Part shown: piece after piece, positions 1,833 to 54,580 of the stretch
Layout of the letters: each line of letters opens with the position of its first letter
How positions within the stretch are numbered: the first letter of the stretch is position 1
Source: Candidatus Krumholzibacteriia bacterium
Lineage (GTDB): Bacteria; Krumholzibacteriota; Krumholzibacteriia; Krumholzibacteriales; Krumholzibacteriaceae
Assembly (NCBI GenBank): GCA_963836185.1
Contig: CAWIIQ010000001.1
Coordinates: forward strand, 2,163,309 to 2,227,308
DNA length: 64,000 bases
Direction of reading: 5' to 3'
Program-made: the position numbers and the translations under genes
Notes under the pieces: generated by a model
Told to the model about the DNA's origin: nothing
Database searches by the model: none
What the model saw: the letters and a program-made list of their open reading frames with translations, nothing else

Positions 1833-4800
1833 CTAGTTGGACGATACCGGAGCCGCCTCGGGCTCCTTCTTCTTCGGGGCCGGCTGCCGCCTGGCGAGCA
1901 GGTCCTCGATCTCGGTGAGGTCGACCGAGACCAGCCTGGAAACACCCTTCTCCTCCATCGTCACCCCGAAGAGCTGGTCCGCGGCCGCCATCGTCCGCTT
2001 GTTGTGAGTGATGATGATGAACTGCGTCTCCACGGAGAACTTCTTCAGCATCTTTACGAACCTCTGGATGTTCGCGTCGTCGAGAGGCGCGTCGACTTCG
2101 TCGAAGATGCAGAAGGGGCTCGGCTTTGCCTTGTAGAGAGCGAACAGGAGGGCGAGCGCGGTAAGGGCACGTTCACCGCCCGAGAGGAGCGAGATGTCCT
2201 GTATACGCTTGCCCTTGGGCCTGGCCCTGATGATGATATCCGCCTCGAGAGGATCGCTTCCCTCTCCGAGATGAAGATCGGCCTCGCCGCCCTCGAAGAG
2301 CACTGTGAATATCTCTGAGAAATGACCCTTCACCGCGGTGAAGGTATCGAGGAACATCTTTCTCGCGCGCCTGTTTATCTTTTTTATCGCTTCGTCCAGT
2401 TCCTCCCTCGCCTTGACAAGGTCATCCTTCTGGGTAGTGAGGAACTCGAAGCGCTGGTTCTTTTCTTCATACTCCTCGACGGCGGCCAGGTTGACCGGCC
2501 CGAGGCTCTCGAGTTTGCGTTTCTCCCCGTCGAGCATCTCCTTCGTTATCATCTTCTCTTCCTCGGTCAGAGGGATCTCGACTCCCTCGAGGTAGCCGCC
2601 GAGTTCCTCCTCGTACAGCTCCCTCCCGCGATCGACGAGGTCGTTCATACGGGTCTCGACCGATGACAGGCTTACACGCAGGTCGTTTATCTTCTCGAAG
2701 ATCGATTCGCGCTCAGCCTTGCGTTCCTTCAGGGCTCCCTCGATACCGGATATAAGCTCTCGTTTCTCCTCGAGCAGGTCGTGCATCCTGCCGAGTTCCT
2801 CCTCACAGGCGGTCTCCTCATCGAGGAAAGTCTTTACCCCCGCCCGTTCTTCCCCTATCGAGCGCTCGAGCCTCGCCGTCTCTTCCTTCGCCGAGCTGAT
2901 CTCGACACTTCTCTGCTCGATGATCGCCCGGAACTGTTTCTCCATCTCGCCATGGCCCCGAAGCTCCTCGTTCTGCCTGTCGAGAGTTCCCTGCAGAGAG
3001 GCGTGCCTGACCTTGCGGGAAGTGAGCTCCGCATCGAGTTCCTCCCTGTTCTTCCTGTAATCCGAAAGCTCGGATTCGAGCCTCTCGGAATCAGAAATAT
3101 CGCCTGAGCTCTGCTGCATGGCGAGAGCGAGCTTCGCTTCTTCGAGCTTTGACAGCATCTCTACACGGCCGTTCTCGAGCTCGTCTAGAGACTTCATCAT
3201 CATCGAGGTCTTCTCTTTGCCCATGATGAATTCGCGCTCGACCTCCTGGAATGCTTCGCGCCTCAGTCCGAGTTCCTCTCGGCCCCGGGTGGACAGTCTC
3301 GCGATCTCCTCGATCCTCTCCCTCAACGACTCCTTCTCGCCGCGCAGGGATCCGCCTTTCTTCTCGAGGCCGTCGATCTCCTTCTCGAACTCGTTTATCT
3401 CACCGGCAAGTCTTTCGATCTCGCCGGTCCTGCCCAGTATCGAAACTTCTTCTCCGGGCGAACCTGAGAAATAGATCCCCCTGCCTCTCGAAAAGTAGAT
3501 CCCGGAAAGCGTCACCGCTCCCGCCGCGTTTCCATCACCGGACGCGATGAAAGCGAGGGCGTTCTCTATCGTATCGAAGAGGAATATCCCGTCGAGCAGC
3601 TGGTCGATCGCTCTCTTCGCACCTGATGGAGTATCGACAAAGGAAGCGAGAGCGCCCAGCATCCCGGCCGCTTCAGGCCCGTCCGCTCCTGGCGCTTTCC
3701 AGCCCGGATCGTCGGCGAGCAGCCTGGCCCCTCCGAATTTTCCCTCGGAGAGTTCCCTGGCGAGATCGACCGCTCCGCCGAGACTGTCGATCACGACTCC
3801 GTCCATCAATCCGCCCATAACGGCTTCGAGCGCCGCGCGGTATTCCTTCTTCGTCTTTATCATATCGGCAAGGGGGCCCCTGACCCTGGAGTCGCCCTTC
3901 TTGAGAACGTGCCTGGCCCCGCCCGGGAATCCTTCAAGATCTTCTTTCATCCTTATGAAGAGCTCATGCCTGCTCCTCATCGCGGCGATCGATTCTTTCT
4001 TTTCCGCGGCTGCCGCCGCATTCGAGGCGATCTGGGTTTCGACCGTTTCGAGTCTCGCGGTCCGTTCTATGTTTTCGCTTTCGAGAGACGAGAGCACCCG
4101 TTGAGCGTCACTGAGAGCTCCCTGCCTGGCGTCGCGCTCGCCTGCAAGCTCGGCCGTCTCCGATTCGAGGGAGACGATCTGCTCGCGCATGTTCCCCGCC
4201 CTCTCATTGAGATCGGCAAGTATCTTCTCGAAGTGCTCAACCGAACTCTTGACCCGCGCCTGGTCCTGGATGAAATCGAGCTGAGTCTGCTTCAGGTCGA
4301 TGAGCTCCACCTGTATCCGTTCCATCTTTATGGAGATCTCCTCGAACAGGCCGCCCAGCTTCTTGATCTCCGCCTCTTCCGAAGCCATCGATTCACTCGT
4401 CACGGCGACCTCGGTCGCCACTCCCTCCATCCGCTCCGCGATCCTTCCGAGACGCGTCTTAGCCTCCTCGATCTCGCGGCCCGCACGGTCGATCAGGCGT
4501 TCCGCTTCGCCCTTTCGCTCGCTGAACTGGATCGTCTTTTCCTCGGCGCCCTGGATCTTTCTCCTGACCTCGTACCGCCTGTTCTGCAGATCGGTGTTCT
4601 TCTTCTCCAGATCGATGAGCAGCAGCTTCTCTTTCTCGACCTTCTTCTCGCTTTCCTCGAGCGACACATCATCACGGTCGGTGAGCTCCCGGCTGCCGGA
4701 GAGTTCCTTCTCCGCCTCTCTCTTCTCGGCCAGAAGCCCGGAGAGGCTTCTTCGAAGATGAACGATGCCGTACTCACGGATCCTTTCGCTTATCGTGCGG

Positions 4801-42434: not shown

Positions 42435-44301
42435 TCAGTCCAGGAGCTCCGCGTCCAGGCTCTTCATGATCCGGTCCAGTGCCGGGCTTTCGGTTTTTGC
42501 GGCTCCGGCTTTCTTTTTAGCGGCGCGGGGGCCCTTTTTCCCGGGCTTCGCTCCGGCAACCTGCCTGTCTGCCGGCTCAGGACCCTCTTCTGCCCCTTCC
42601 GGCTCTTTGCCGCCCGGACGCGGTTTTGTCCGCGCGTCTATCTCCATCTTTGCCTGGTTGTCGGGACTGCCCACTTTGATATCGACCGTTTCACATGTCT
42701 CCACGGTAAATTTTCTTCCATAGAACTTTTCGAGATGATCCTCTATCAGCCGCCTGTTCTTCGCGTCTCTTATCATCGCCATGGCGAACCTGTTCTGCGG
42801 CGAAAAGGAGAGGATCAGGTTCCCATCCTCGATACCGGCGACCTCCGCCGACATCAGCCATATACCGACGGTGAGCTTCGCTTCCCTGACCTGCGCGAGA
42901 AACCGCTCCCACTCATCCCTGCCACCGAGAGCTTCAAGAAGGGGATTCTCCCTGACCGGTATCTCGGGGGTCCCGGATGGCCCTGCCGCCGGTTCTTCCG
43001 CCGGGGATGCCCCGGCCGCGGGCGAGTCGGACGGCGCGGCAGCGTCGACCATTGCCGACGACATCGCCGGCCCGGATCCTTCCGCTGCTCCCGGCCTTTC
43101 AGCCTGTCCCCGCCTGGCGGCTCCGCTGCCGTTCGCCGCGCTCCCTGATACCGCGGATGCGCCACCCTCTCCGGACTCGAGCCTGCTGATAAGTTCGCCT
43201 ATCTCCACCGCCGATTCCCAGGATGCGGCTTCCGCCACGGCTGCTTCAATATGATATCGCGGATTGCTCGTACCCTTTAGCTCACGGTGCGCCCTCGACA
43301 TCGAGCGGAAAATAAACAGCAGGTCCTCTATCTCGAACTTCTCCGCGATCGCGGACAGTTCCTCTATCTCGCCCGAAGTGAGGTCGAGCCAGTCGGTCCG
43401 GCCTGCCGATACCGAGATGACCAGCAGATTCCGTATCCCTTCGATGAAGCCGATGAAGAACTCTTCGAGATCCATGCCGGAAGCGGTCACCCGGTCCACT
43501 ACCGAAAGCGCCTCGTTCCTGTCACGGCGGCTCACCGCGTCGAGCAGTCCGGAGACGATCTGTGAATCGACCAGTCCCAGGACCTTCCGGACGGTATCGA
43601 GGTCGATCTTTTCTTCGGCGGCCGAAATACACTGGTCCAGCAGTGATTCCGCGTCGCGCATCGAACCGTCGGCCCTTCTGCATATCAATGTCAGCGCTTC
43701 AGCGATCGTACTTTATCTTCTCGGAATCGCATATCCTTTTGAGCTGCCCGGAGAGTTCGGACAGTTCGAGCCTCTTGAAATTGAATCTCTGGCAGCGCGA
43801 CAGGATCGTAGCGGGGACCTTGTGCGGCTCTGTCGTCGCGAATATCAGGTAGACATGTCCCGGGGGTTCCTCGAGAGTCTTGAGCAGGGCATTGAAAGCC
43901 TGCTGAGTGAGCATGTGGACCTCGTCGATGATATAGATCTTCGAGCTGGACTGCGAGGGGGCGTACCCGATCTTCTCCCTCAGGTCCCTTATCTCATCGA
44001 TCCCCCTGTTGGATGCACCGTCGATCTCTATCATGTCGAGATGGTTGCCGCTGTTTACGGAGACGCATGAGGAGCACTTGTTGCATGGCTCGCCGTTGTC
44101 GGGTTCCTCGCAGTTGATGATCTTCGCGAGCAGCCGAGCCGTCGTGGTCTTGCCGCAACCGCGCGGTCCAGAAAAGAGATAGGCATGCGCCAGCCTGCCC
44201 TTCTCGTAGGCCTTCTGGAGTGTGGACGTGACATGGTCCTGGCCGACTACCTCGGCGAAGGTCCCGGGTCTCCATTTTCTGGCAAGCACGAGATAAGACA
44301 T
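42435..44301 (-). CDS. dnaX: DNA polymerase III subunit gamma/tau, interrupted by a 1-nt frame change near 43695
   Basis: N-terminal AAA+ module (GPRGCGKTTTARLLA, zinc module CNKCSSC, SRCQRF) in ORF 43699..44301; continuation (IAEALTLICRRADGSMRDAESLLDQ...) in ORF 42435..43688; reading is restored by inserting one A in tacgat^tcgctg. Confidence 0.9.
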
Positions 44302-44379
44302 GAGCGCAGTCCCCCGGTAAGAAGTTCAGGAGACCGTGCACCCGGAATCGAAAGGCACCCCCGGCTCTTGCGTCAGGGT

Positions 44380-44495
44380 TAGCTCCTGTCAGGATACCCG
44401 CGGCACATAAGAATGACTGCGTACCGCTGCTACCTTCCGGTCCTGACGGGGTTGGCAGGTTCTCATTGCGCGGGTCCTGGCACTCAACACCACTT
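44380..44495 (-). ncRNA. ffs: signal recognition particle RNA (small, 4.5S type); boundaries approximate
   Basis: Minus strand GUCAGGACCGGAAGGUAGCAGC (44447..44426) matches the conserved domain IV motif GUCAGGUCCGGAAGGAAGCAGCC; location immediately upstream of dnaX is the conserved ffs-dnaX-ybaB-recR synteny. Confidence 0.75.
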
Positions 44496-44611
44496 CCCGC
44501 CGCCGATCGCTCGGAGACAACGCTCCCTCAACCGGGAATTCGGCCCCGCTATAGCGGATTGCGGGTGCAGGGCACCGCTAATTCCCCGCCTAGCACGATC
44601 TCTGATAGAAA

Positions 44612-44687
44612 TGGTGGAGATGATCGGATTCGAACCGACGACCCCCTCGTTGCGAACGAGGTGCTCTCCCAGCTGAGCTACATCCCC
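44612..44687 (-). tRNA. tRNA-Ala (anticodon CGC)
   Basis: GGGGAUGUAGCUCAGCUGGGAGAGCACCUCGUUCGCAACGAGGGGGUCGUCGGUUCGAAUCCGAUCAUCUCCACCA; G3:U70 identity pair; anticodon loop UUCGCAA. Confidence 0.9.
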
Positions 44688-44740
44688 ACCCTTTATTATC
44701 AACGCCGGCCCGCTTACCACGGCCCGGCAGTCCAATCCAA

Positions 44741-44830
44741 TGGCGGAGAGAGAGGGATTCGAACCCTCGGAGGAGTTGCCCCCTCAACGGTTTTCGAGAC
44801 CGTCCCGTTCAACCGCTCCGGCATCTCTCC
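44741..44830 (-). tRNA. tRNA-Ser (anticodon CGA)
   Basis: Type II tRNA with long variable arm; anticodon loop CUCGAAA; T-loop GGUUCGAAUCC; encoded CCA. Confidence 0.88.
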
Positions 44831-44839
44831 GTCGGGAAC

Positions 44840-44866
44840 TATATATAATCGGCGCCAAGATATCAA
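44840..44866 (-). promoter_or_regulatory. candidate sigma70-like promoter for tRNA-Ser(CGA)/tRNA-Ala
   Basis: Minus strand TTGATA-N15-TATATA ending about 10 nt upstream of the tRNA 5' end. Confidence 0.35.
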
Positions 44867-44900
44867 TAGCGGAGAGTCGTATTGTCTGCTGATTATGTGA

Positions 44901-44990
44901 ATTAATGGCCGGGACGGACATAATTAATGGCCGGGACGGACATGATTTACGCCAGGATTGGATATAATTTATGCCGGGATGGACATAAAA
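44901..44990. repeat. four tandem copies of a roughly 22-bp repeat (ATTAATGGCCGGGACGGACATA and diverged copies)
   Basis: ATTAATGGCCGGGACGGACATA / ATTAATGGCCGGGACGGACATG / ATTTACGCCAGGATTGGATATA / ATTTATGCCGGGATGGACATAAAA in direct tandem, in AT-rich spacer between two tRNA-Ser genes, ending at the 3' end of tRNA-Ser(GGA). Confidence 0.8.
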
Positions 44991-44991
44991 A

Positions 44992-45082
44992 TGGCGGAGA
45001 GAGAGGGATTCGAACCCTCGGAGGAGTCACCCCCTCACACGATTTCCAATCGTGCCGATTAAGCCAGCTCTCGCATCTCTCC
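44992..45082 (-). tRNA. tRNA-Ser (anticodon GGA)
   Basis: Type II tRNA with long variable arm; anticodon loop UUGGAAA; encoded CCA. Confidence 0.88.
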
Positions 45083-45090
45083 GCTAATAA

Positions 45091-45140
45091 TCTGTCAGGG
45101 ACCAGTCCACGCAGTATCGGAGACCAGTCCACGCACCATC
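45091..45140. repeat. two direct copies of GACCAGTCCACGCA, 23 bp apart, immediately upstream of tRNA-Ser(GGA)
   Basis: gGACCAGTCCACGCAgtatcggaGACCAGTCCACGCAcc read directly from sequence; lies between tadA stop and the tRNA 5' end. Confidence 0.7.
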
Positions 45141-45165
45141 GAGTGTCATATCAACCGGGTGCGTC

Positions 45166-45615
45166 TCAGTCCTCACGTAATCTAGTAAAAAACTTCCTCA
45201 GAAGCAAAAGACATTCTTCCTCGAGCACCCCGCTCTTGACGATCAGCCTGTGACCGTACAAGTCCGCGTGGTGAAGGTCACCTACAGATCCGCAGGCGCC
45301 GCTTCTAGGCTGCCTCGCCCCGTAGACGACACGTTCCGCCCTGGCGAGATACAGAGCCCCGAGGCACATGTGACACGGCTCGGATGTGACATAGACGCTG
45401 CAGCCGTCGAGTCTCCAGTCTCCCGTCACGGCTGAAGCGCTGTCGATCGCAAGGATCTCGGCGTGAGCCGTAGCGGTCTTTCTCGTCTCGACCTCGTTAC
45501 GGCCCCTCCCTATAACCTCGCCGCCACGGACCACGACGGCGCCAACCGGCACTTCACCCGCCTCAAGGGCCAGCGCAGCCTCGGCCAGCGCCTCCTTCAT
45601 CCATCTCTCATCCAT
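45166..45615 (-). CDS. tadA: tRNA-specific adenosine deaminase
   Basis: CDA zinc motifs HAEILAI and SEPCHMCLGAL; size and sequence typical of TadA. Confidence 0.9.
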   Translation of the reverse strand: MDERWMKEALAEAALALEAGEVPVGAVVVRGGEVIGRGRNEVETRKTATAHAEILAIDSASAVTGDWRLDGCSVYVTSEPCHMCLGALYLARAERVVYGARQPRSGACGSVGDLHHADLYGHRLIVKSGVLEEECLLLLRKFFTRLRED

Positions 45616-45655
45616 CGGGTATATCTTTCAGCGTGCCTGCCGGCTGTCACCTCTG

Positions 45656-46369
45656 TCAGGAGCCCGATTTTTCGGGTATCGCCCCGACGAGCGACTCCAG
45701 GACAAGGACCACCACATCATCGAACGGAGGCGCCGCGTAGATATCTCCTCCCGATATCGAGGTCCCTGATACCCTCCTGTCGATACCTGCGGATGAGGAC
45801 TGGACCCTGTCCCCTTCACTCCGGACCGATTCCTTGTAATTCTCATCGGTCGCGTCCCAGAGAACATGCCCGTTGCCCGGATCTATCAGGCTGAGCGTCA
45901 TGCCTACCTGAGTCACCGATGCAGCCGCAGCTTCACGATAATCCGTCTCGTCCTTGTGCCACAGATATACTACGGGGACGAGCAGCAGGTCTACGTCCAG
46001 TTCCGCCTTGATCGCCCGGCACAGGTCCATATGCACTATATGCTCCCGGCTCCACTTGGTCTTGAATTCCTCGGACCTCTCCGCGAGGTCCGCTTTCGCG
46101 ACGACCATCCTGAACTGCTCCGGCGAAAGGAACTTGTAATCGTATCTATCGGAAACGAACTCCCAGAGGACCCTGTTGGGGATCCTCTCCGAATCGCGCT
46201 TCGGATCCTCGCCCCTGGTGATAGTGCTTATCGTCGGCAGGACCAGTATCGTCGTGTATTCTCCCGGGTTGAAATCAGGTTCGGCCTCTATGCTCACCGG
46301 ATGCTTCGATTTGCATCCGGCCATCGCGAGCAGTACGAGCGCGATTACTGATATTACTGTTTTTTTCAT
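45656..46369 (-). CDS. hypothetical lipoprotein
   Basis: Signal peptide with lipobox (LLAMAGC); no recognisable catalytic motif. Confidence 0.55.
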   Translation of the reverse strand: MKKTVISVIALVLLAMAGCKSKHPVSIEAEPDFNPGEYTTILVLPTISTITRGEDPKRDSERIPNRVLWEFVSDRYDYKFLSPEQFRMVVAKADLAERSEEFKTKWSREHIVHMDLCRAIKAELDVDLLLVPVVYLWHKDETDYREAAAASVTQVGMTLSLIDPGNGHVLWDATDENYKESVRSEGDRVQSSSAGIDRRVSGTSISGGDIYAAPPFDDVVVLVLESLVGAIPEKSGS

Positions 46370-46723
46370 CTTCCACTCCGGTTTCCAGTTGAAGGACTAG
46401 AATATCGCTCTGAAAGATACCAGTGTGATTATCGCAGTGTCAATCCGTATCAGGGCAAGACGTACAGGAATGAACTTCAGTATCAGGATCACCGGATCTA
46501 TCTATTACTGTACAGTTGCGCCTCCAGTCAAACTGCTCCATAAGATAATTTGGAAATCTTTCTTAATTTCTATATTGACAACATTTTGGAGGTATTTTTC
46601 GACCCGTCCGGACAGGCCTGCGGGATACCCGCCAGAGCGATACAGGCGGCCCGGGAGACCCGCCGGGGGAACAGGCCATCATCTCTTTTTCGCCTCCCAC
46701 AGGAAAACGCCTCTACGTTCTCC

Positions 46724-46753
46724 TGTCACGTCCCCGGGATCCCGTGTTATAAT
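46724..46753 (+). promoter_or_regulatory. candidate promoter (TGTCAC-N18-TATAAT with extended -10 TGT) upstream of the HNH gene
   Basis: cctGTCACgtccccgggatcccgTGTTATAATg about 40 nt upstream of ATG 46791, which has a GGAGG ribosome-binding site. Confidence 0.45.
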
Positions 46754-46790
46754 GTCTGTGCGTGGTGGGTGGACAATGGGAGGTGGAAGT

Positions 46791-47969
46791 ATGAACGACT
46801 CAATCCGGCTCGATTCCCTGGGCACTCTTTCAGACAACAGGCTGATACGACAGCTCGAATCCCTGAGGGGGAAGGAACGCATGCTCCTCGCTGCGGTCCT
46901 TCGGCACCTTCTGGAGATGGAACGTCGAAAGCTCTACCTGCCAAGGGGATATTCGTCTCTGTTTGAATTCTGCACTCAGCACCTGAAATATTCGAGATCC
47001 GCCGCAGGGAGAAGGATCGCAGCTGCCAGGACTATCGGGAAGTTTTCTTCTCTCGAGGGATATCTCCTCAACGGCGAGATCAATCTCTATTCCCTGTCCC
47101 TCATCTCGGGGATCCTGACCAGGGAGAATTTCAGGGAGATCGTCCAGGGGATCAGGAACAGGCCGACCCGTGAGGTCGAGGCCTTCGCGGCTGCGTACAG
47201 GCCCGCCCGCGTCCTGAAGGACCGAGTCAAGCCGGTCTGCGTGATGGTGCCCGCTGCCGCAGACGGAAAAACCGCCCGTCCGGGAAGGACCTCTTCCAGT
47301 CCCGGCACCGGTTCCAGTCACGGCACCGCCGGGTTCGACCCCACTCCCGGTGCCGGGAGTGCCGGATCTACTCCCGGCGCCGGGAGTGGAAAATTCCCCG
47401 CACCGGGATCGGGAAGACCGGGGCCCGAGATTTTCGAACATGTAAGGATCAGCAGGAAGTTCAAGTTCGAATTTGCCGTAAACAACGAGTTCAAGAAAAA
47501 GTTCGACCGCATGAAGGCCCTGCTCTCTAGCAGATATCCCCAGGGTATCAGTTTCGAGGCTCTCTTCATGTTGCTGATGGACGAATACATCGAACGTCAC
47601 AGCCCTGAGGGAAGAGCCGCCAGGCGGGAAAAACGACTGGCAGCGGGGACCAGCTGCGGGACCGGATCGTCAAACGCCGTCAATGGATCGGGCGGCGGCG
47701 ACAGATCCGGCCGGAGAACGCGCAACATACCGGCAAAGGTCCGCGACGAGGTCTTTCTACGCGACGGAGGGAGATGCACCTTCAAAGGCTCAGATGGCAA
47801 AAGATGTAACTCTAAATGGAACCTGCAGATAGACCATATCGTACCTTTTGCGCTCGGCGGGGACGATTCACCCGGGAACCTCCGGCTGCTGTGCGGGAAA
47901 CACAACCGGCTGGAAGCGGAGCGCGTCTTTGGAAGCCGGCACATGGAAAGGTTTAAAAAACGGGAATAA
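46791..47969 (+). CDS. HNH endonuclease with DUF222-like N-terminal domain and Gly/Pro/Ser-rich linker
   Basis: C-terminal HNH motif (CTFKGSDGKRCNSKWNLQIDHIVPFALGGDDSPGNLRLLCGKHN); N-terminal region resembles DUF222; start at ATG 46791 with GGAGG upstream (the upstream in-frame extension is low-complexity). Confidence 0.75.
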   Translation: MNDSIRLDSLGTLSDNRLIRQLESLRGKERMLLAAVLRHLLEMERRKLYLPRGYSSLFEFCTQHLKYSRSAAGRRIAAARTIGKFSSLEGYLLNGEINLYSLSLISGILTRENFREIVQGIRNRPTREVEAFAAAYRPARVLKDRVKPVCVMVPAAADGKTARPGRTSSSPGTGSSHGTAGFDPTPGAGSAGSTPGAGSGKFPAPGSGRPGPEIFEHVRISRKFKFEFAVNNEFKKKFDRMKALLSSRYPQGISFEALFMLLMDEYIERHSPEGRAARREKRLAAGTSCGTGSSNAVNGSGGGDRSGRRTRNIPAKVRDEVFLRDGGRCTFKGSDGKRCNSKWNLQIDHIVPFALGGDDSPGNLRLLCGKHNRLEAERVFGSRHMERFKKRE

Positions 47970-54528: not shown

Positions 54529-54557
54529 AGTATAAGAAGTGCCCGTCAGGCTGTCAA
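54529..54557 (-). promoter_or_regulatory. sigma70-consensus promoter (TTGACA-N17-TATACT) upstream of the tRNA-Ser/tRNA-Arg cluster
   Basis: Minus strand cTCTTGACAgcctgacgggcacttctTATACTaacc; exact -35 hexamer and 17-nt spacer. Confidence 0.55.
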
Positions 54558-54580
54558 GAGCAGACAGGCATCAGGCAGTT

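Follow-up and report, generated by a model that had tools for sequence, protein, structure and literature searches.

Bacterial intergenic minisatellites, or VNTR loci, consist of units of 10-100 bp in non-coding DNA and are formed by slipped-strand mispairing. Next to tRNA genes, the distal repeats of the E. coli tyrT locus lie after the last tRNA gene and have units of ~178 bp, each of which contains ~19 nt of the tRNA end; the repeats start with this 3'-terminal tRNA stretch, and their origin is attributed to unequal crossing-over. Upstream of stable-RNA promoters, the Fis sites and the UP element of E. coli rrnB P1 serve as upstream activating regions, and such sites are conserved in related species and are found again at further promoters of rRNA and tRNA genes. 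tRNA-Ser genes are common attachment sites, and the attL/attR repeats of genomic islands flank kilobase-long elements, usually copying 15-50 nt of the tRNA. In the tRNA arrays of Entamoeba, short tandem repeats that vary between strains occupy the spacers of tRNA clusters (PMC2652664). Our literature search returned no paper on the tyrT repeats and none on repeats in Krumholzibacteriota.

Herein, we describe a tandem array of 22-bp units between two tRNA-Ser genes of a Candidatus Krumholzibacteriia bacterium, in a stretch of 64,000 nucleotides that was analysed as a whole (the window). The closest proteins to the TadA, DnaX, and RecR of the window are named Candidatus Krumholzibacteria or Krumholzibacteriota, which assigns the window to an uncultured member of this phylum. 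Read along the minus strand, the gene order is lipoprotein gene, tadA, tRNA-Ser(GGA), a 161-nt spacer, tRNA-Ser(CGA), tRNA-Ala(CGC), large SRP RNA, dnaX, and recR, and the features flanking the spacer are as follows.

46369-45656, minus strand: lipoprotein gene
45166-45615, minus strand: tadA (tRNA adenosine-34 deaminase), from Pfam matches; conserved upstream neighbour
44992-45082, minus strand: tRNA-Ser(GGA), 91 nt, CCA encoded (ARAGORN; Rfam tRNA model, 50 bits)
44741-44830, minus strand: tRNA-Ser(CGA), first gene after the promoter (ARAGORN, Rfam)
44612-44687, minus strand: tRNA-Ala(CGC), second gene of the tRNA-Ser(CGA) unit (ARAGORN, Rfam)
44334-44598, minus strand: large bacterial SRP RNA, directly downstream of tRNA-Ala(CGC) (Rfam RF01854, 191 bits)

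The whole-window Rfam run at the gathering threshold missed tRNA-Ser(GGA), which reaches 50 bits in a search of a shorter stretch; the miss is due to speed filters and reflects no defect of the gene. Beyond the lipoprotein gene, positions 46425-47969 of the plus strand encode a 514-aa protein with a C-terminal HNH domain. Its relatives, 374-410 aa long, lie beside tadA and the lipoprotein gene in a conserved arrangement. Matches of the HNH part to the IscB/Cas9 HNH models are weak (E 1e-5, far under the cut-offs), and the remainder of the protein has no family match.

The array occupies 44901-44990 and is composed of four head-to-tail units with lengths of 22, 22, 22, and 21 bp, with no unique DNA between them. 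The units were numbered from the tRNA-Ser(GGA) end (U1) toward the promoter of tRNA-Ser(CGA) (U4).

44967-44991, minus strand: U1 together with a T-run that lies directly 3' of the tRNA-Ser(GGA) CCA end
44967-44987, minus strand: U1, 21 nt, plus-strand sequence ATTTATGCC-GGGATGGACATA, minus-strand sequence TTATGTCCATCCCGGC-ATAAA
44945-44966, minus strand: U2, plus-strand sequence ATTTACGCCAGGATTGGATATA, minus-strand sequence TTATATCCAATCCTGGCGTAAA; the most diverged copy, 16/23 to U4
44923-44944, minus strand: U3, plus-strand sequence ATTAATGGCCGGGACGGACATG, minus-strand sequence TCATGTCCGTCCCGGCCATTAA; 21/22 identical to U4
44901-44922, minus strand: U4, plus-strand sequence ATTAATGGCCGGGACGGACATA, minus-strand reading TATGTCCGTCCCGGCCATTAAT / TTATGTCCGTCCCGGCCATTAA; nearest the promoter, at about -70 to -91

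Tandem Repeats Finder reported this array at 44900-44995 (period 22, 4.5 copies, 76% matches, score 99) as the top-scoring tandem repeat of the 64-kb window, and the best same-diagonal score was 23 at an offset of 22, whereas 2000 shuffles of the spacer reached 12 at most. The four tandem 22-bp repeats that an earlier note had picked out from the letters alone are thus real. That note had also described two near-identical and two diverged copies in an AT-rich spacer, and both descriptions were borne out. U3 and U4 agree at 21 of 22 positions and the other pairs at 16-19 of 22-23 (U1/U4 19/22, U1/U2 18/22, U2/U4 16/23), and the G+C content of the spacer is 43.5%, compared with 58.2% for the window. 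The positions conserved in the unit are T.AT.TCC...CC.G...T.AA, and the AT-rich halves of the units are mixed sequence without A-tracts.

A second, unrelated tandem duplication with the same period lies on the other side of tRNA-Ser(GGA).

45100-45141, minus strand: second 22-bp tandem duplication, 1.9 copies, 90% match (GACCAGTCCACGCA...), between the tadA stop codon and tRNA-Ser(GGA)

One of the related loci, L172, has it as a single copy, whereas in L082, L085, and L086 tRNA-Ser(GGA) begins 4 nt past tadA and the spacer that holds the duplication is missing. The three top-scoring tandem repeats of the window all fall within 2.5 kb (44900-47330), with periods of 22, 22, and 18 and scores of 99, 70, and 63, respectively. 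The period-18 repeat (47294-47328) is inside the ORF of the HNH protein.

The unit was not recovered at any other place searched. When up to 3 mismatches were allowed, the 22-mer matched only the array within the 64-kb window (0.00 matches expected in window shuffles), and with up to 5 mismatches the unit had no match in 1.5 Mb of related loci or in the remainder of the window. A 20-mer of the unit gave 0 matches in 185,579 species genomes and an 18-mer gave 0 matches in IMG/VR. A dispersed repeat of the REP/BIME or MITE type does not fit the lack of further copies in the 64-kb window, related loci, species genomes, and IMG/VR. An 8-mer (CGGGACGG) common to the plus strand of the unit and the D/anticodon region of tRNA-Ser(CGA) was attributed to chance (~0.1 expected, hand estimate).

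Both tRNA genes are encoded on the minus strand, so that the array comes after tRNA-Ser(GGA) and before the promoter of tRNA-Ser(CGA). A distance of 1-4 nt separates it from the 3' end of tRNA-Ser(GGA), where the earlier note had placed its end, but this is the only tRNA 3' end that it adjoins, and the several ends mentioned there are reduced to one. On the other side, a consensus scan found a sigma-70-like promoter, and the alignment of related spacers described below showed a partly conserved block upstream of it.

44838-44866, minus strand: sigma-70-like promoter, TTGATA-17-TATAGT, 10/12 matches to the consensus
44867-44905, minus strand: partly conserved upstream block, about -36 to -74 (...TTAATTCACATAATCAGCAGACAATACGACTCTCCGCTA)

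The promoter lies between the array and tRNA-Ser(CGA) and is the sole promoter-like site in the surrounding 2 kb; the SRP RNA probably shares it with the two tRNA genes. With the putative transcription start taken at ~44831, the array extends from -70 to -159. Between the -10 hexamer TATAGT and the mature 5' end of tRNA-Ser(CGA) there are 7 nt (window 44831-44843), a spacing also kept in L001, L002, L005, L006, L085, L086, L168, L169, and L176. Given this short distance, transcription may start at or within 1-2 nt of tRNA +1, which would yield a nearly leaderless precursor.

To place the array in an evolutionary context, related loci were collected by a metagenome scan with TadA and by exact-protein look-ups, and RecR homologues added one complete locus (L176). 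A genome scan with the N-terminal part of DnaX had distant phyla but no close relative among the matches listed, and a protein search with this part yielded partial DnaX proteins only. The order tadA, tRNA-Ser(GGA), tRNA-Ser(CGA), tRNA-Ala(CGC) is conserved across the phylum, and tRNA-Ser(GGA) is 97-100% identical in all close relatives. In distant relatives, with TadA 55-69% identical, the spacers are mostly 38-70 nt and at most 102 nt long and do not contain the promoter block of the window's clade. Within this clade, spacers measure 85-194 nt, and TadA identity is 90-93% for the relatives whose spacer is complete.

Nine close spacers were aligned (alignment A1). Nearly all positions are invariant from just above the -35 hexamer to the tRNA, partial conservation extends upstream to about -78, and at the opposite end of the spacer the first trailer bases are conserved. 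In the upstream block, CTCTCCGCTA is invariant and the rest is common to the longer spacer type. The segment between the start of the trailer and the upstream block is variable in both length and sequence, and it is exactly this segment that the array fills. The array ends at the start of the block, and the repeat copies just 5-7 nt of the block edge, with the core excluded. The earlier note had suggested comparing this locus in related genomes and had regarded absence of the repeat, there and elsewhere, as a sign of neutral local duplication. This is what was found, because the array is present in none of the nine close relatives with a full spacer, each of which keeps the tRNA genes and the promoter, and the unit occurs neither elsewhere in the window nor in the other collections searched; Tandem Repeats Finder likewise detected no array in the spacers of the relatives.

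The spacer also varies between strains that are otherwise nearly indistinguishable. L085 and L086 have identical tadA (450/450 nt) and tRNA-Ser(GGA) sequences and 97% identity across 600 nt downstream, yet their spacers of 103 and 178 nt, respectively, are unalignable. Similarly, L168 and L169 encode identical TadA proteins and have spacers of 85 and 154 nt. In L002, positions ~3190-3250 (spacer positions 70-135) carry a triplication with a 20-nt period, CATGAGACTATGGGGTATGT / CATGAGACCAAGAAGCCCTT / CATGAGACTAATTCGAAT... (CATGAGAC...). It lies at the place homologous to the array and has a different sequence, and its near neighbours L169 and L001 are single-copy there. Many contigs of the clade end at or near the tRNA-Ser(GGA) locus, which fits strain heterogeneity of the spacer, though short contigs are common anyway. 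Judged from these comparisons of sequence, the spacer after tRNA-Ser(GGA) is structurally unstable, beyond what drift would produce.

The borders of the array point to the DNA from which the units may have been built. U1 has its orthologue in the tRNA trailer of L086, L168, and L176 (TTTTTATATCCAGCCCGG...), which reads TTTTTATATCCAGCCCGGATG in L086 and TTATTATATCCAGCC(C/T)G... in L176 and L168. At the other end, the counterpart of U4 in A1 is the segment that borders the conserved block on its upstream side, e.g., GGCCTTCCGCGGCACTAATTC in L086. We consider it probable that the array is a young, lineage-specific neutral minisatellite that arose through slippage or unequal exchange in a spacer that is unstable and free of constraint. 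The ancestral 22-bp segment would have consisted of the 3' trailer of tRNA-Ser(GGA) fused to the distal edge of the tRNA-Ser(CGA)/tRNA-Ala/SRP RNA upstream region, a trailer-to-block junction that resembles the short spacer of L001. Replication slippage or unequal exchange would then have duplicated this segment in head-to-tail orientation three times or more, in the sole part of the inter-tRNA spacer that has no sequence constraint and is restructured from strain to strain. U1 and U2 would be the oldest copies and would since have drifted, and U3 and U4 would represent the latest duplication, which is nearly intact. At least two rounds of duplication are suggested by the graded identities of the units (21/22 against 16-19 of 22-23). 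The triplication in L002 and the second 22-bp duplication at 45100-45141 show that tandem duplication recurs in these unconstrained stretches. The array most likely has no sequence-specific function, and all that it certainly does is place an additional ~66 bp between the end of tRNA-Ser(GGA) and the downstream promoter.

Several observations argue against neutrality. The array lies at -70 to -159 of a strongly conserved stable-RNA promoter, its period, like the 20-bp period in L002, is near two helical turns, and the two independent amplifications at one place could mean selection instead of a mutational hot spot. A likeness of the unit to the tRNA 3' end, described below, also counts against it. 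The units could instead be phased protein sites about two helical turns apart, bound by a nucleoid-associated protein or activator, with a copy number that tunes the promoter of tRNA-Ser(CGA), tRNA-Ala, and SRP RNA. The earlier note had raised this possibility as an array of sites for a dimeric DNA-binding protein, and the 22-bp phasing and the upstream position remain in its favour. The promoter concerned is invariant in the clade, the AT-rich and GC-rich halves of the units alternate along the array, and the E. coli upstream activating sites lie about where the array lies relative to the promoter. A weak dyad read from the sequence, ATGGCC-N5-GGACAT, pairs at 5/6 in U3 and U4 and more weakly in U2, and the independent 20-nt triplication of L002 stands at the homologous place. 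However, the L002 units differ in sequence from those of the window, so one shared protein cannot account for both arrays. The close relatives keep the promoter, yet all of them are without the array, and only the edge (5-7 nt) of the conserved upstream block was copied, not its core. The other promoter-bearing tRNA operon of the window (TTGACA-17-TATACT at about 54530-54560) has no similar array upstream of its promoter, and no additional copy of the unit occurs within the 64-kb window. At 2 mismatches, a 13-nt core of the unit had 8 matches outside the array in the 64-kb window, compared with 4.7 expected, which is no clear enrichment. The products of the adjoining genes are a deaminase, a lipoprotein, and an HNH protein, with no regulator gene nearby, and we know of no binding protein for such sites in the Krumholzibacteriota phylum. 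An array of binding sites is therefore an unlikely explanation.

A broader version would treat the spacer as a contingency-like region, in which units of ~20-22 bp were amplified independently in at least two lineages (that of the window and that of L002) and phased binding of a nucleoid protein would tune stable-RNA expression. Alternatively, the units would be arm-type sites of the integrase that brings defence islands to this tRNA. We regard these versions as improbable.

The latter version leads to mobile DNA. In L082 and L083 (GCA_004196295.1, contig SDBS01000145.1), a type I restriction-modification island of >10 kb begins 4 nt after the CCA of tRNA-Ser(GGA) and replaces the usual spacer (L082 10531-20435, L083 1886-11790). 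The island encodes SNase, HTH-HsdM, DUF1016/YhcG, HsdS, a 1088-aa KAP-family NTPase, and HsdR. The spacer of the window could accordingly be imagined as the remnant of an element integrated at the 3' end of tRNA-Ser(GGA), with the units as decayed att cores or integrase arm-type sites that were later amplified. Consistent with such an origin, the expanded promoter-bearing spacer is confined to the window's clade, and the tRNA-Ser 3'-terminal 23-mer is found in >120 viral contigs of IMG/VR, often at contig ends.

Two short similarities to the tRNA end also bear on this origin. The motif CTCTCCGCTATT at 44865-44876, in the upstream block and beside or overlapping the -35 hexamer, agrees at 11 of 12 positions with the tRNA-Ser 3' end and two bases of trailer, and all close relatives keep it with 1-2 changes. 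No other such match occurs within the window except at 3 of the 4 tRNA-Ser 3' ends. A match of this type arose in 18 of 20,000 spacer shuffles (p about 0.0009; noticed post hoc). The 3' half of the unit, TCCCGGCCATT, resembles the tRNA end, TCTCCGCCATT, at 9 of 11 positions, a similarity seen in 159 of 20,000 composition-matched shuffles (p about 0.008; also post hoc). Both similarities could stem from a tRNA end that was duplicated long ago, whether by integration or by unequal exchange between the two tRNA-Ser genes, and CTCTCCGCTATT may be what is left of a tRNA 3' end that was displaced or duplicated. They do not, however, account for abutting 22-bp units. A decayed tRNA-Ser pseudogene in the spacer was considered, as the motif at 44865-44876 lies midway between the genes, but was rejected because the intervening sequence has no tRNA similarity.

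Head-to-tail 22-bp units without intervening DNA are not a product of conservative site-specific recombination, and the tRNA likeness of the unit spans just ~11 nt, under the ~15-nt direct repeat expected for att. No integrase is encoded by the flanking genes of the window (tadA, lipoprotein, HNH, dnaX, recR) or in 10 kb of the island, and the same 10 kb holds no second copy of the tRNA end. Searches of IMG/VR and of 1 Mb of viral loci with the tRNA-Ser end gave no unit-like sequence, and none of the >120 viral contigs with the 23-mer has this trailer. The earlier note had offered a remnant of an integrase att site as its second functional reading. The tRNA-linked instability of the locus lends it circumstantial support, and the abutting units, the lack of a visible integrase, and the lack of a viral match speak against it. 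We consider a scar of mobile DNA to be quite improbable. In summary of the earlier note, the array is real, but neither functional reading gained real support.

The units might instead act in RNA, as trailer hairpins of the primary transcript that end transcription or guide or protect 3' processing. An 8-bp hairpin with -6.3 kcal/mol (z -3.9) can form in U1, two nt beyond the CCA end. The array taken as a whole also gives a more stable fold than its shuffles (z -2.7), and all relatives have a T-run 3' of the CCA. However, U2-U4 fold weakly (-1.2 to -3.4 kcal/mol, z -0.2 to -1.4, not significant), the orthologous trailers of the relatives fold no better than shuffles, and a scan of the minus strand found no terminator-like site. 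An Rfam search of 44700-45200 at a permissive threshold returned only tRNA models and chance sub-threshold matches, leaving the array without a family. After two other tRNA genes of the window, a G+C-rich hairpin is visible, in one case with a T-run (by eye, not scanned). A role of the units as trailer hairpins is thus very doubtful.

The near-identical U3/U4 pair could also have been created by the assembler. At least one 1-nt indel error is probable in the assembly, namely in dnaX, and many related contigs break at the tRNA-Ser(GGA) locus. The graded divergence of the four units is not assembler-like, so at most U3 or U4 would be affected, and the finding would be essentially unchanged. An assembly artefact is hence highly unlikely. 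Considering the dnaX indel, the exact copy number of the array is that of the assembly and is not verified by reads. The dnaX gene is split into two ORFs on the minus strand, 44301-43699 (200 aa) and 43688-42435 (417 aa), and at 43690-43710 it contains one extra base compared with L176 and L086 (TACGATCGCTGAAGC vs TACGAT-ACCGAAGC). The site is not slippery, which makes an assembly or sequencing indel likelier than programmed frameshifting.

If the array is a neutral minisatellite, as we favour, it is in itself of little consequence, being one more local tandem duplication in non-coding DNA. Of wider interest is the stretch behind tRNA-Ser(GGA), which is replaced, expanded, or occupied by an island even between strains with identical flanking genes, while the adjacent promoter is invariant. 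The spacer locus could thus be a possible strain marker, and its variability is probably the reason for the frequent breaks of metagenome assemblies of these organisms at this place. If copy number affected the promoter, the locus would be a rare bacterial case of repeat-based tuning of tRNA and SRP RNA.

Compared with known systems, the array resembles attL/attR repeats in its place beside a tRNA 3' end, in the defence island of a relative at the same site, and in the short similarities to the tRNA end, but its copies abut and no integrase is seen. It resembles Fis/UP regions in that AT-rich repeats in rough helical phase lie ~70-160 bp upstream of a strong tRNA promoter, but it occurs in one lineage and is missing at the other tRNA promoter of the window. 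With the tyrT repeats it shares tandem tRNA genes adjoining repeated DNA, but its units are 22 bp long, have a tRNA-end likeness of ~11 nt (9/11), and lie between the tRNA genes. The Entamoeba arrays are alike in having strain-variable repeats in tRNA spacers, and no evolutionary relation is implied. VNTR loci differ in that no copy-number variation of the array unit is seen here, as the relatives are without the unit altogether, and in that no phase-variable gene is attached to the array, the downstream genes being stable RNAs. Nevertheless, the array agrees with VNTR loci in its head-to-tail units in non-coding DNA, in a presence that differs between strains, in the graded divergence of its units, and in units that are not dispersed.
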